The notes under the pieces: generated by a model
Seen by the model: the letters and a program-made list of their open reading frames with translations, nothing else
Database searches by the model: none
What the model was told of the DNA's origin: nothing
NCBI RefSeq assembly: GCF_000406145.1
Contig: NZ_CM001976.1
Span: 357,497 to 389,496 of the forward strand
DNA: 32,000 nucleotides
Reading direction: 5' to 3'
Source of the DNA: Dickeya dadantii NCPPB 898
GTDB taxonomy: Bacteria; Pseudomonadota; Gammaproteobacteria; Enterobacterales; Enterobacteriaceae
Shown: positions 29,533 to 31,864 of the stretch, piece after piece
Numbering within the stretch: the stretch's first letter is position 1
Layout: the number at the start of each line of letters is the position of its first letter
Translations under genes and position numbers: made by a program

Positions 29533-29883
29533 TAATCAACTTGTTGATGGCAAGAGGGGCATGAAAAGCTTATCAGCAGTGCGGTTCATGGCCGCTGTGT
29601 GGCGGTGTAACCCGGTGAGGTCGCTAATGACAGATCGTTGAATTTATGGCAATAAAAAATCAGGCGAGGATGTCATAAAAAATAATTATCTCGTGGGAAT
29701 GCGACATATTTCCAAATCATTATTATACTAATCATATTATATTTATTCCCGAATATTATTTACCGGCTAACAAATATCGCCGATGAGATAACTCGCTTTT
29801 TTATTTATAAAAATTATCTTGTCACAAAATATTATTTTTCCATACTTTATAGTGAATCACTCATCAGTCGGTGAGGTAACGCA

Positions 29884-29985
29884 ATGCCTGATGCAGTCCA
29901 TTCGGATCTGCTGTCTGTTGCTTATTTTCGCTATTGGGGCAAGGCGCGCTCGTATTCTGAAAATGATTCCCTTTATTTTTATTAG
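29884..29985 (+). pseudogene. cas3: Putative remnant of the cas3 5' end (33 codons then TAG)
   Basis: It translates to MPDAVHSDLLSVAYFRYWGKARSYSENDSLYFY*. The Y/H-WGK-A/S motif near residue 15-20 is the characteristic type I-E Cas3 N-terminus (E. coli ...ICHYWGKSS...). It is on the same strand as cse1, 284 nt upstream of it, in the canonical cas3 position. Only about 0.4 kb is present where an approximately 2.7-kb gene would be expected. Confidence 0.4.
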
Positions 29986-30268
29986 GTTAGTGATGCCCGC
30001 TGTTTCTGGTCGCTTCATCGGGACAGTGAGAAAAACGAACGTGCGTTGACGGACAGCCTTGTGTCGGATTCCACAGTAATAACGCAACAATAATGAGGTT
30101 TATTCGGCTACGCGTCGGGTCGAAATGAAAAATATTCCCGCATTGGCGGGGTTTGTTCACCGGGAAATATCGGAGCCTCTGGCGTGAACTCTGGCGCGCC
30201 GGGGCGGAAAACAATAACAGGAACCATGACGACCTCAGGGATGAGGCCCGACTTGAAGAGGTAGGTTC

Positions 30269-31777
30269 ATGTTTTCACTGATTGACACACCCTGGTTACC
30301 CGTCGTAGGTGCGGATGGGCACCGCACCCGAATTTCTCCCCGCCAACTGGTTAACGATGACATTATTGATCTGGCGTGTCCCCGGCCTGATCTTCAGGGC
30401 GCTGCCTGGCAGTTGCTGATTGGCCTGCTGCAAACCGCGTACTCTCCGCCAGATGACGACGCCTGGGAGGACATCTGGCATGGCGGGCTGGGCAAAGGCT
30501 GGGCGAAGGCATTGACGCCGCTGGCGCCCGCGCTGTGGTTTGGCGCGAAGGCGAAGAAACCCGCGTTTATGCAGTATGGCGTGGGGCCGGCAGGGAAGGT
30601 CAGACCGATTGCTGATTTACTGGTGAACGCCGCCGGCGAACAGCCATTGACCTTCAATCGGCAGCATGTGTTGACGCATGGCCCGGTGGAGGCGATTTGC
30701 CCGCACTGTGCTGTGCTGGCGCTCTACGCCCGGCAGTCCCATGCGCCGTCAGGCCGCCGCTCTGTTCATGCCGCCGCCCCGGCGATGAAGACGCTGCTGA
30801 CATTGCAGGACCATCGTCAGCCGTTATGGCGCAAATTGTGGGCAAATGTTATCCCCGGTGTACACGGACATTGTGTTTCCGAGGTGTTTCCGTGGCTGGC
30901 ATCGTCGGGTATTCATGATGAAGCCGTAACACCGGAGAGCATCGCGCCACTGCAATCGTTCTGGGAAATGCCGCTACGCATTGAACTCGATTTTGTCCAC
31001 ACCCAAACCGGGCATTGCGAGCTGTGTGGTGAGGCATCGGAGCATCTGTTGACCCATTTCCGCGGTGATGTTCGCGCTGCTCGTCATGAACACCGTGAGC
31101 ATCCGTTGACGCCTTACCGGCAATCTGTTCAGGATGGTTCGCTGTTGCCTGTTGCCGGGCAGTTGCAAGGGCTTGCTTATCGGGAGTGGCCGGGGCTGGT
31201 TCTGGGTGAACAGGGCGGTGAGTATCACACCCTGCCCGCGCGGGCCGTTCAGCTCAATCATCAACGTGACCCGCTGCGGTGCAAAGTGGGGTTATGGTGT
31301 TTCGGTTACGATCTGGCAGAGGGAAAAGGCGGTTGGTACGAGCACCATATTCCAACATGGGGTGAAGTGACGCCGGCTATACGCGATTATCTGCCGCTGG
31401 CGGTGCAGATGGCGGACGATGCCCACTCTCTGCTGTGTCAATCGGTTCAGGCCGCCGGCGTGGGAGCGGACAAACACTGCTGTACGATTGATGTGACTTT
31501 CTGGCAGGAGACGGAGCAGTTTTTCAAGCGGTTGTATGACGCCATTGCCGGCGGCATGTCTGTCGCTGAGGCCCTGAAAGCATGGCAAAATCAGCTGTAT
31601 CTCTATCTGATTGGCACGTTTGACCGACTCACCTTCGGCAATCCCGATCTACGCTGTGATTTGAACCTGGCGGTCGAGGCGCGCAGTAATATGGTCAATC
31701 GATTCTGCAGCCAGAAAACCGCTGTACAGATTGAAAAAATGCAGCCGCAGGAAACGTTGGCGGCGGTGAACAGTTAA
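30269..31777 (+). CDS. casA: Type I-E Cascade large subunit Cse1/CasA homologue (apparently solitary)
   Basis: N-terminus [12 protein letters not shown] matches the Cse1 signature (E. coli MNLLIDNWIPV). There are paired CxxC motifs ([12 protein letters not shown] and [10 protein letters not shown]) at the positions of E. coli ALCGGCTAIALF and GKCSCCGQES, followed by EHPLTPYR (E. coli PHPHSP). The length is 502 aa, the same as E. coli CasA as I recall it. GAGG Shine-Dalgarno lies 7 nt upstream. Confidence 0.8.
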
Positions 31778-31781
31778 CCGG

Positions 31782-31813
31782 TAGCCGTCCCCCGGCCGGG
31801 GTGATAGCCGTCC
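31782..31813. repeat. 9-bp direct repeat flanking a GC palindrome just after the cse1 stop
   Basis: TAGCCGTCC (31782-31790), then cccggccggggtga, then TAGCCGTCC (31805-31813). The interior CCCCGGCCGGGG is a perfect 12-bp palindrome. Confidence 0.85.
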
Positions 31814-31832
31814 AGGCTGGGATTATTGAAAC

Positions 31833-31864
31833 GCGACCTGAATACTCAGGTCGCTTGGCTTTAT
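31833..31864 (+). terminator. Hairpin terminator downstream of cse1, possibly bidirectional
   Basis: 9-bp perfect stem GCGACCTGA/TCAGGTCGC (31833-31841 / 31846-31854) with the 4-nt loop ATAC, followed by TTGGCTTTAT. An A-rich tract (TTGAAAC) precedes it. Confidence 0.55.

Follow-up and report, generated by a model that had tools for sequence, protein, structure and literature searches.

A solo, derived cse1/cas8e gene retained under purifying selection at a collapsed type I-E CRISPR-Cas locus of Dickeya dadantii, with a putative exapted function

Parts of CRISPR-Cas systems are kept outside adaptive immunity in the Cas1 of casposons, solo Cas4, the Cas3-less Cascades (CRISPR-associated complexes for antiviral defence) of Tn7-like transposons, and type IV systems; such reuse of Cas proteins shows how defence systems are dismantled and recycled. 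No catalytic activity is known for the large subunit of type I systems, which is regarded as functional only within Cascade. Here we describe a 32,000-nucleotide stretch of the Dickeya dadantii NCPPB 898 genome (contig NZ_CM001976.1, positions 357,497 to 389,496; hereafter the window), in which a full-length gene for the type I-E large subunit, cse1/cas8e, stands alone. Casposon Cas1, solo Cas4, the Tn7-like Cascades, and type IV systems keep a catalytic enzyme or an entire CRISPR RNA (crRNA)-binding complex, whereas this locus keeps the large subunit only and has no guide RNA locus. We consider, with a probability of about 0.7, that this solo Cse1 is an exapted, Cascade-independent Cas8e with a putative function, which was retained by purifying selection after the collapse of a type I-E system. 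The gene is already annotated publicly as Cse1/CasA, and what is new is its description as a derived, solo Cas8e; a literature search for orphan or solo cse1/cas8e and for Dda3937_01270, the orthologue in strain 3937, found no paper describing either. Decayed cas loci and orphan arrays of the Enterobacterales have likewise lost interference and adaptation genes, with intact and degraded alleles in one genus, and orphan arrays have been noted in Dickeya and Pectobacterium (PMC8386352). Unlike in those cases, the survivor here is an intact protein-coding gene under purifying selection.

The solo cse1/cas8e occupies positions 30269-31777 of the plus strand as an uninterrupted open reading frame (ORF) of 502 amino acids, with an ATG start and a TAA stop at 31775-31777. 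Its product is identical to WP_038910065.1 (P0123) and differs from that of strain 3937, ADM96589.1, at 3 residues. A preliminary description of this DNA, made from the letters alone, had recognised a full-length Cse1 by its LIDTPWLPV, two CxxC pairs, and HPLTPY, and had suggested a profile search. Both family models named there were strongly matched above their curated cutoffs, namely Pfam PF09481 (1e-84, 285.8 bits against a cutoff of 24.7, residues 4-444) and TIGR02547 (2e-74, 251 bits against a cutoff of 70), and the PADLOC Cas8e profile matched at 5e-77. LIDTPWLPV corresponds to residues 4-12, and it lies, like C144/C147, C250/C253, and the HPLTPY starting at H278-P279, in invariant or near-invariant columns; in an alignment of 109 sequences, the columns of C144, C147, C250, C253, H278, and P279 are invariant. 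The AlphaFold2 model (predicted local distance difference test 85, predicted template modelling score 0.88) is of low confidence only at residues 122-136, in the L1-loop region, and at 162-168. It shows the two-domain fold of the family, with an N-terminal globular domain and a C-terminal helical bundle (helices 369-501). In Foldseek comparisons, the model matched E. coli Cse1 with a template modelling score of 0.73-0.75 (E 2e-19), and all 22 significant matches were Cse1/CasA or I-E-type Cascade complex entries. The GC content of the gene is host-like, as noted earlier (58.3% versus 58.5% for the window), and its GC content at third codon positions (GC3), 63%, is lower than the 74-77% of scrK and scrY. 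The viral contig collection contained no Cse1 relatives.

Compared with the canonical Cse1/Cas8e of E. coli (4QYZ/5H9E), T. thermophilus (4AN8), and T. fusca (3WVO), the D. dadantii protein belongs to the same family and has the same fold, cysteines, HPLTPY, and helical bundle. It differs in that its gene stands alone, the glycine-rich loop that reads the protospacer-adjacent motif (PAM) is shortened and replaced, and the finger and wedge segments are altered. At 151 columns, each at least 90% conserved in 104 other Cse1 sequences, the D. dadantii solo protein has 44 mismatches and that of D. solani 41, compared with 15 in the D. zeae type, 14 in D. chrysanthemi, and 6 in D. dianthicola, all three of them solo, and 3 in intact Dickeya alleles; the background has a median of 2 and a maximum of 17. 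About 30% of the family-conserved positions are replaced in the D. dadantii protein. D. dadantii and D. solani have most of the derived residues in common; the changes are therefore old and were retained afterwards.

E. coli Cas8e reads the PAM and opens the duplex by means of a glycine loop, a lysine finger, and a glutamine wedge, all in its N-terminal domain (PMC6546366). The glycine-rich segment, GG.GHR.G.RGGGP (PGFGGGFKSGLRGGTPVTT in E. coli), is four residues shorter here and reads SVHAAAP. The Gly-to-Ala change that had been spotted in the GLRGG.P.TT segment is real, lies at this PAM loop, and is one of the 44 changes among the 151 columns. Furthermore, the KNYG segment reads DVRA, and in FGYDMDNMKARCWYEH the conserved DN (that of FGYDMDNMK) reads AE and the conserved RC reads G followed by a gap. 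In the sequence alignment, where the lysine finger and the wedge were assigned manually against the E. coli protein, the glycine loop, lysine finger, and glutamine wedge are not retained. The fold, the four cysteines, the first ~65 residues, and the C-terminal helical bundle are conserved. Relative-rate estimates with Brenneria roseae as the outgroup gave a nonsynonymous (dN) branch of 0.21 for D. dadantii versus 0.08 for D. fangzhongdai (~2.7-fold faster), and the D. zeae and D. chrysanthemi solo lineages evolved about twice as fast as the intact ones.

The locus is a vestige of an ancestral Pectobacteriaceae type I-E CRISPR-Cas system next to the sucrose operon. Complete cas3-cse1-cse2-cas7-cas5-cas6e-cas1-cas2 operons are found at the scrK-adjacent site in six loci, those of D. 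fangzhongdai (L006), Dickeya sp. CFBP 2040 (L009), D. dadantii subsp. dieffenbachiae (L014), Brenneria roseae (L001), B. uluponensis (L011), and Pectobacterium carotovorum (L013), and arrays of 29-nt repeats were confirmed in L006 and L001. The window is syntenic with these intact systems at scrK, and the intact Dickeya operons have both the genomic site and the leader in common with the solo locus. In the window, cas3 is cut to a stub of 33 codons followed by a TAG stop (29884-29985, codons 29884-29982, plus strand), to which residues 1-29/33 of the Cas3 proteins of D. fangzhongdai (E 4e-10 to 8e-11) and CFBP 2040 (E 4e-10) align in tblastn; beyond this 5' stub, tblastn with three Cas3 proteins detected no further Cas3 segment in the window. 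The genes from cse2 through cas2 and the array are gone. The preliminary description had already read the locus as a collapsed I-E system keeping only a full-length cse1 and had proposed a comparison with related strains, and the intact loci at the equivalent site, together with the cas3 stub, bear this out.

The absence of partner genes extends beyond the window. In the D. dadantii contigs L002 and L003, which are 98.5% identical to the window, yhbP (150 amino acids), nrdG, and nrdD follow position 32000, and neither the window nor the following 10 kb of these near-identical contigs contains another cas gene or a CRISPR array. A tblastn search using the eight Cas proteins encoded by an intact Dickeya locus recovered only Cse1 and the first 29-33 residues of Cas3; cse2, cas7, cas5, and cas6e went undetected both in the window and in the flanking DNA of L002 and of the D. 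solani contig L004, and cas1 and cas2 gave no signal either. The window contains no I-E repeat at up to 3 mismatches and no tandem array. At the level of the locus, a cas3 gene, the Cascade genes, cas1/cas2, and a 29-nt-repeat array are all missing. The earlier statements that no cse2 follows the cse1 stop and that the window lacks an array therefore hold, and Cascade genes, which might have lain just past the window end, do not appear there in the near-identical contigs. For D. dadantii subsp. dadantii, I-F and I-C systems have been reported and no I-E system (PMC6206727), and no CRISPR-Cas system has been described in typical D. solani (PMC10743776).

The solo state predates the split of D. 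dadantii and D. solani. The D. solani locus has the same solo architecture and the same junctions, and its Cse1 is 88% identical at the amino acid level. Between the two species, the ratio of nonsynonymous to synonymous divergence (dN/dS) of cse1, calculated by the Nei-Gojobori method (NG86) rather than by likelihood codon models, is 0.20-0.23, with a 95% bootstrap confidence interval (CI) of 0.16-0.32. The corresponding NG86 value for an intact-locus pair, D. fangzhongdai and CFBP 2040, is 0.16 (CI 0.12-0.21). Divergence at four-fold sites between D. dadantii and D. solani is 0.159 in cse1, 0.149 in yhbP, and 0.145 in nrdG, and that of the adjacent intergenic DNA is 0.14-0.15, compared with a nonsynonymous divergence of cse1 of 0.054-0.058 (Fisher's test of nonsynonymous against all synonymous sites, p = 5e-21; against four-fold sites, p = 6e-7). 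In neutral simulations, the ORF stayed open in none of 5000 runs at a divergence (d) of 0.26 and in 0.08% at d = 0.13. The alleles on record, 12 from D. dadantii (502 amino acids) and 3 from D. solani (501 amino acids), are all full length, without frameshift, premature stop, or truncation, and the dN/dS of 0.23 is not near 1, as it would be in a pseudogene. Purifying selection on Cse1 since the split has thus been almost as strong as in intact systems, and the neutral decay against which the preliminary description had proposed a dN/dS estimate is not seen.

Published data from strain 3937 show that the gene is transcribed. The coordinates of that strain transfer exactly, since it has the same scrK-cse1 and cse1-yhbP spacings as the window and L002. 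The primary 5' end at 414194, 102 nt before the ATG (PMC9239193), falls on position 30167 of the window, among the first bases of the conserved leader, and an internal 3' end at 415885 (PMC9239193) falls on 31858, at a hairpin. The RNA sequencing (RNA-seq) ends thus flank the gene, and the suggested check for expression gave a positive result at this level. The leader, a 5' untranslated region of 112 nt (30157-30268, plus strand), carries the Shine-Dalgarno GAGG at -11 to -8, which had been described as good, and is conserved across Dickeya. It is 88-96% identical across the solo loci and 90-98% identical to the intact L006, whereas the cse1 coding sequence is only ~68% identical; it also occurs in L004-L010 and in L014 (9889-10000), in species whose synonymous sites have diverged by 0.5-0.9. 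Downstream, an intrinsic-terminator-like hairpin with a T-rich tail (31833-31864, plus strand) closes the monocistronic unit. Its hairpin (31833-31854) begins 55 nt past the stop and has a 9-bp stem with 6 GC pairs and the tail TTGGCTTTAT; the stem is kept in D. solani and the loop differs (AATAC versus GGAG). The terminator proposed after the cse1 stop is therefore conserved and coincides with the published 3' end. In the published map, transcription unit 173 consists of Dda3937_01270 and yhbP (PMC9239193 Table S1A), and read-through from the former into the latter is graded 'low signal' (PMC9239193). Overall, cse1 survives as a transcription unit of a single gene, which retains the native leader and ribosome-binding site and ends in a terminator.

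Solo cse1 genes recur at the scrK site in other Dickeya species. Besides D. solani, the solo loci of D. dianthicola (L010; the gene neighbourhood is the same in 24 contigs), D. zeae/oryzae/ananatis (L005 type), and D. chrysanthemi (L007, L008) have the same scrK-yhbP/nrdG site, a cas3 stub, the leader, and a full-length cse1, and they lack the Cascade and adaptation genes. Only D. solani has the allele and junctions of the window; the other alleles are ~60% identical and carry 6-15 changes at conserved positions. The cas3 stubs also differ in length, with ~25-46 codons alignable to intact cas3 depending on the species, and two of the species keep a cse2 stub, one repeat vestige, and an MCP gene. 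In the case of D. dianthicola, ~7 cse2 codons are followed by a single repeat vestige (22/24 matches; L010 11557-11580), and in D. zeae, ~33 cse2 codons are followed by a weaker one (16/19; L005 11634-11652). The position of a single repeat directly after the cse2 stub indicates that the downstream deletion joined the 5' end of cse2 to an array repeat. In both species, the downstream neighbour is the MCP gene on the opposite strand, which the D. chrysanthemi solo locus has also lost. The D. zeae, D. chrysanthemi, and D. dianthicola types have a common junction directly after the cas3 stop, and their cse2-side junctions differ. The cse1 sequences do not cluster by solo state, and the D. dianthicola solo copy is 89% identical to the intact-locus copy of D. 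fangzhongdai. There were at least two collapses and probably more.

D. dadantii itself holds both forms. In the intact-locus strain, identity to the window is 96.7-98.2% in the flanks and only 68.5% in cse1, which shows that the solo allele is much older than the species; a survey of 5.8 billion clustered proteins gave no closer relative. Among intact loci, Cse1 proteins at least 90% identical occur across distant species, one group (cluster 5) comprising D. zeae, D. aquatica, D. lacustris, D. poaceiphila, and Musicola paradisiaca, and another (cluster 4) D. fangzhongdai, D. undicola, and D. dadantii subsp. dieffenbachiae. Such near-identity points to horizontal exchange of the whole I-E locus at a conserved site.

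These data suggest that Cse1 now does a job unrelated to CRISPR interference, and it probably no longer takes part in crRNA-guided interference. The PAM-reading surface appears remodelled and the fold, cysteines, N-terminus, and helical bundle are kept, which favours a stand-alone binding role; with low confidence, the protein might bind nucleic acid or a partner through its N-terminal domain and C-terminal helical bundle. Such a role would be needed only outside lysogeny broth (LB) and chicory, for example upon contact with phages or mobile elements. That cse1 is repeatedly the remaining gene when I-E loci collapse in Dickeya points to a benefit of the lone gene. A wider version of the exaptation, which we hold as tentative, is that Cas8e was domesticated, the lone gene with its native leader being selected in several species via separate deletions and the PAM surface being remodelled in the oldest lineage, that of D. 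dadantii and D. solani.

Each of four other explanations is contradicted by at least one measurement. The preliminary description had left two options, a very recent deletion survivor or a Cse1 retained and possibly repurposed; the second is favoured over the first by the sharing with D. solani, the dN/dS of 0.23, and transcription. As a recent survivor, cse1 would be a neutral remnant too young to have gathered disabling mutations, and the degraded surroundings (a cas3 stub, no Cascade genes, and no array), the dispensability of the gene in LB and chicory, the splitting of some D. oryzae copies of a related solo type, and a GC3 below that of the neighbouring genes all fit this. It is nevertheless very unlikely, since D. 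solani has the same solo architecture, the upper CI of dN/dS (0.23) is 0.32, the four-fold divergence of 0.16 stands against a nonsynonymous one of 0.055, none of the 5000 simulated neutral ORFs stayed open, 15 of 15 alleles are full length, and the derived residues, being mostly common to both species, are old. The retention might instead be a by-product of deletion mechanics, in which recombination between a repeat and the 5' end of cse2, together with a separate loss of cas3, spares cse1. The cse2 stubs of D. dianthicola and D. zeae, fused to a single repeat vestige, and the same junction after the cas3 stop in three solo lineages agree with such events; this account explains how the solo state arose, but not why the ORF stayed intact at a dN/dS of 0.1-0.23, and we regard it as unlikely.

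Conservation of the fold, the four cysteines, the N-terminal 65 residues, the helical bundle, and the native leader could also mean that Cse1 is still a working Cascade large subunit, serving I-E or other type I parts elsewhere in the genome or on mobile elements, and D. dadantii does carry I-F and I-C systems. However, I-F and I-C systems each use an unrelated large subunit of their own, the literature gives no I-E system for D. dadantii subsp. dadantii and no CRISPR-Cas for typical D. solani, and the altered glycine-loop, lysine-finger, and wedge segments, with 44 of 151 conserved positions changed, leave this explanation highly improbable. We give just as little credence to a frame kept for a reason other than the protein, such as an internal DNA or RNA element regulating scr, yhbP, or nrdDG, or hitch-hiking with the leader. 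The leader and the cas3 promoter region are indeed better conserved than the coding sequence, and the published units group cse1 with yhbP, with 'low signal' read-through. Yet the constraint is specific to nonsynonymous sites and is thus a protein-level signal, the terminator parts cse1 from yhbP, which has its own stronger start, and the solo loci of D. zeae and D. dianthicola have another downstream neighbour, the MCP gene on the opposite strand.

Several points weigh against exaptation. Any function is putative, and transposon sequencing (Tn-seq) found Dda3937_01270 non-essential in LB and neutral in chicory (log2 fold change -0.26, p 0.76; PMC6637903). Expression is seen at the transcript level only: both transcript ends are classed 'medium', that is, supported by RNA-seq only (PMC9239193), the cse1 start has a value of 16 in the table of transcription start sites versus 84 for yhbP (PMC9239193), and sigma-70 promoter prediction gave no convincing candidate upstream of the mapped 5' end, so expression may be weak. 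The dS to other Dickeya alleles is saturated, which makes selection on the long early branch poorly measurable. The number of independent collapses is uncertain, as the cas3 junction is shared and interspecies recombination could spread one deletion. Retention is not universal either, because some D. oryzae strains have a split D. zeae-type solo gene (247 + 272 amino acids), and the solo gene is therefore sometimes lost to pseudogenisation. The split copies (247 amino acids plus 272/278 amino acids) are the cluster 3 members P0134, P0136, and P0139, from D. oryzae OS31 and OS12. Finally, the view that I-E genes are lacking elsewhere in the genome draws on the literature and 21 kb of context.

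It is unexpected to find a lone large subunit maintained by selection in several species, among them D. solani, for whose typical strains no CRISPR-Cas is described; a Tn-seq paper on D. solani refers to CRISPR solely as a tool. If the domestication were true, this would be the first described exaptation of a lone type I large subunit. Both D. dadantii 3937 and D. solani serve as genetic models, and for strain 3937 Tn-seq data and transcript maps exist, which makes it tractable to ask what Cas8e does on its own. Moreover, the label 'type I-E CRISPR-associated protein Cse1/CasA', assigned by annotation pipelines, can falsely suggest I-E immunity in these genomes.

The cse1 gene sits between the sucrose operon and yhbP/nrdGD. 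The sucrose operon, scrK-scrY-scrA-scrB-scrR, lies on the minus strand (26740-29473 and upstream) and has exbB-exbD and metC before it; 413530, the scrK transcription start published for strain 3937, corresponds to window position 29503. The gap between scrK and cse1 measures 795 bp, not the ~0.4 kb given in the preliminary description, and it is not empty: it holds the cas3 promoter region, the cas3 stub, a hairpin, and the cse1 leader. The AT-rich cas3 promoter/upstream remnant (29789-29883, plus strand) is homologous to the DNA upstream of intact cas3 in L006 (6483-6579) and L014 (6520-6650) and is 98% identical to D. solani and 89% identical to the D. zeae and D. chrysanthemi solo loci; no start site is listed in it in the transcription map of strain 3937. 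The stub is followed by a 150-bp filler specific to D. dadantii and D. solani (29986-30135), 91% identical between the two. Comparison of the filler with cas3, with the intergenic DNA of intact loci, and with other solo loci gave nothing above shuffled controls; decayed cas3 and kinship with the other solo fillers were both considered as its origin and rejected, because local alignments did not exceed those of shuffled sequences. A short GC hairpin, CCCGCATTGGCGGG, terminator-like on both strands, lies at 30136-30151. At its position, GCTGCTTCGGCAG is found in the intact locus of CFBP 2040, where it stands directly 3' of the intact cas3 stop, and in the D. dianthicola, D. chrysanthemi, and D. 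zeae solo loci. Within 29400-32000, no Rfam family was found, and a short ORF that lies upstream of cse1 within the leader was discounted as a leader peptide because its frame is not conserved across species.

The ~195 bp past the cse1 stop (31778-31971), including the terminator hairpin, are specific to D. dadantii and D. solani. They contain a GC palindrome, GTCCCCCGGCCGGGGTGATA (31787-31806, plus strand), a weak candidate for a decayed I-E repeat. As such a repeat it was rejected: its alignment score to the Dickeya I-E repeat is 10, and random window tiles reach 13. The palindrome is absent from D. solani as a 23-nt indel and is kept only as a weak possibility; the single-repeat vestiges of D. 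dianthicola and D. zeae, which occupy the corresponding place, are clearer. At 31972-32000 (plus strand), blastn homology to the yhbP upstream region of L007, L010, and L014 resumes, which marks the right edge of the collapsed locus.

Further features were observed in the related loci. In Pectobacterium, a toxin-antitoxin-like pair of HigB and a helix-turn-helix (HTH) protein lies between cas3 and cse1 (L013 5863-6702), and within the D. dadantii subsp. dieffenbachiae locus an HTH_17 and PIN toxin-antitoxin-like pair follows the array (L014 18383-19419). Brenneria roseae has two small minus-strand ORFs between cas3 and cse1 (L001 8877-9514). Between scrK and cas3, L006 (2918-5753) and L014 (2984-5819) carry three extra genes, for an MFS transporter, a dTDP-sugar-isomerase-like protein, and an ORF of 87 amino acids, which are absent from the window and from CFBP 2040. 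The D. zeae cas3 stub contains an 18-nt tandem duplication, TATTGGGGTAAAGCACAG (L005 ~9690-9730).

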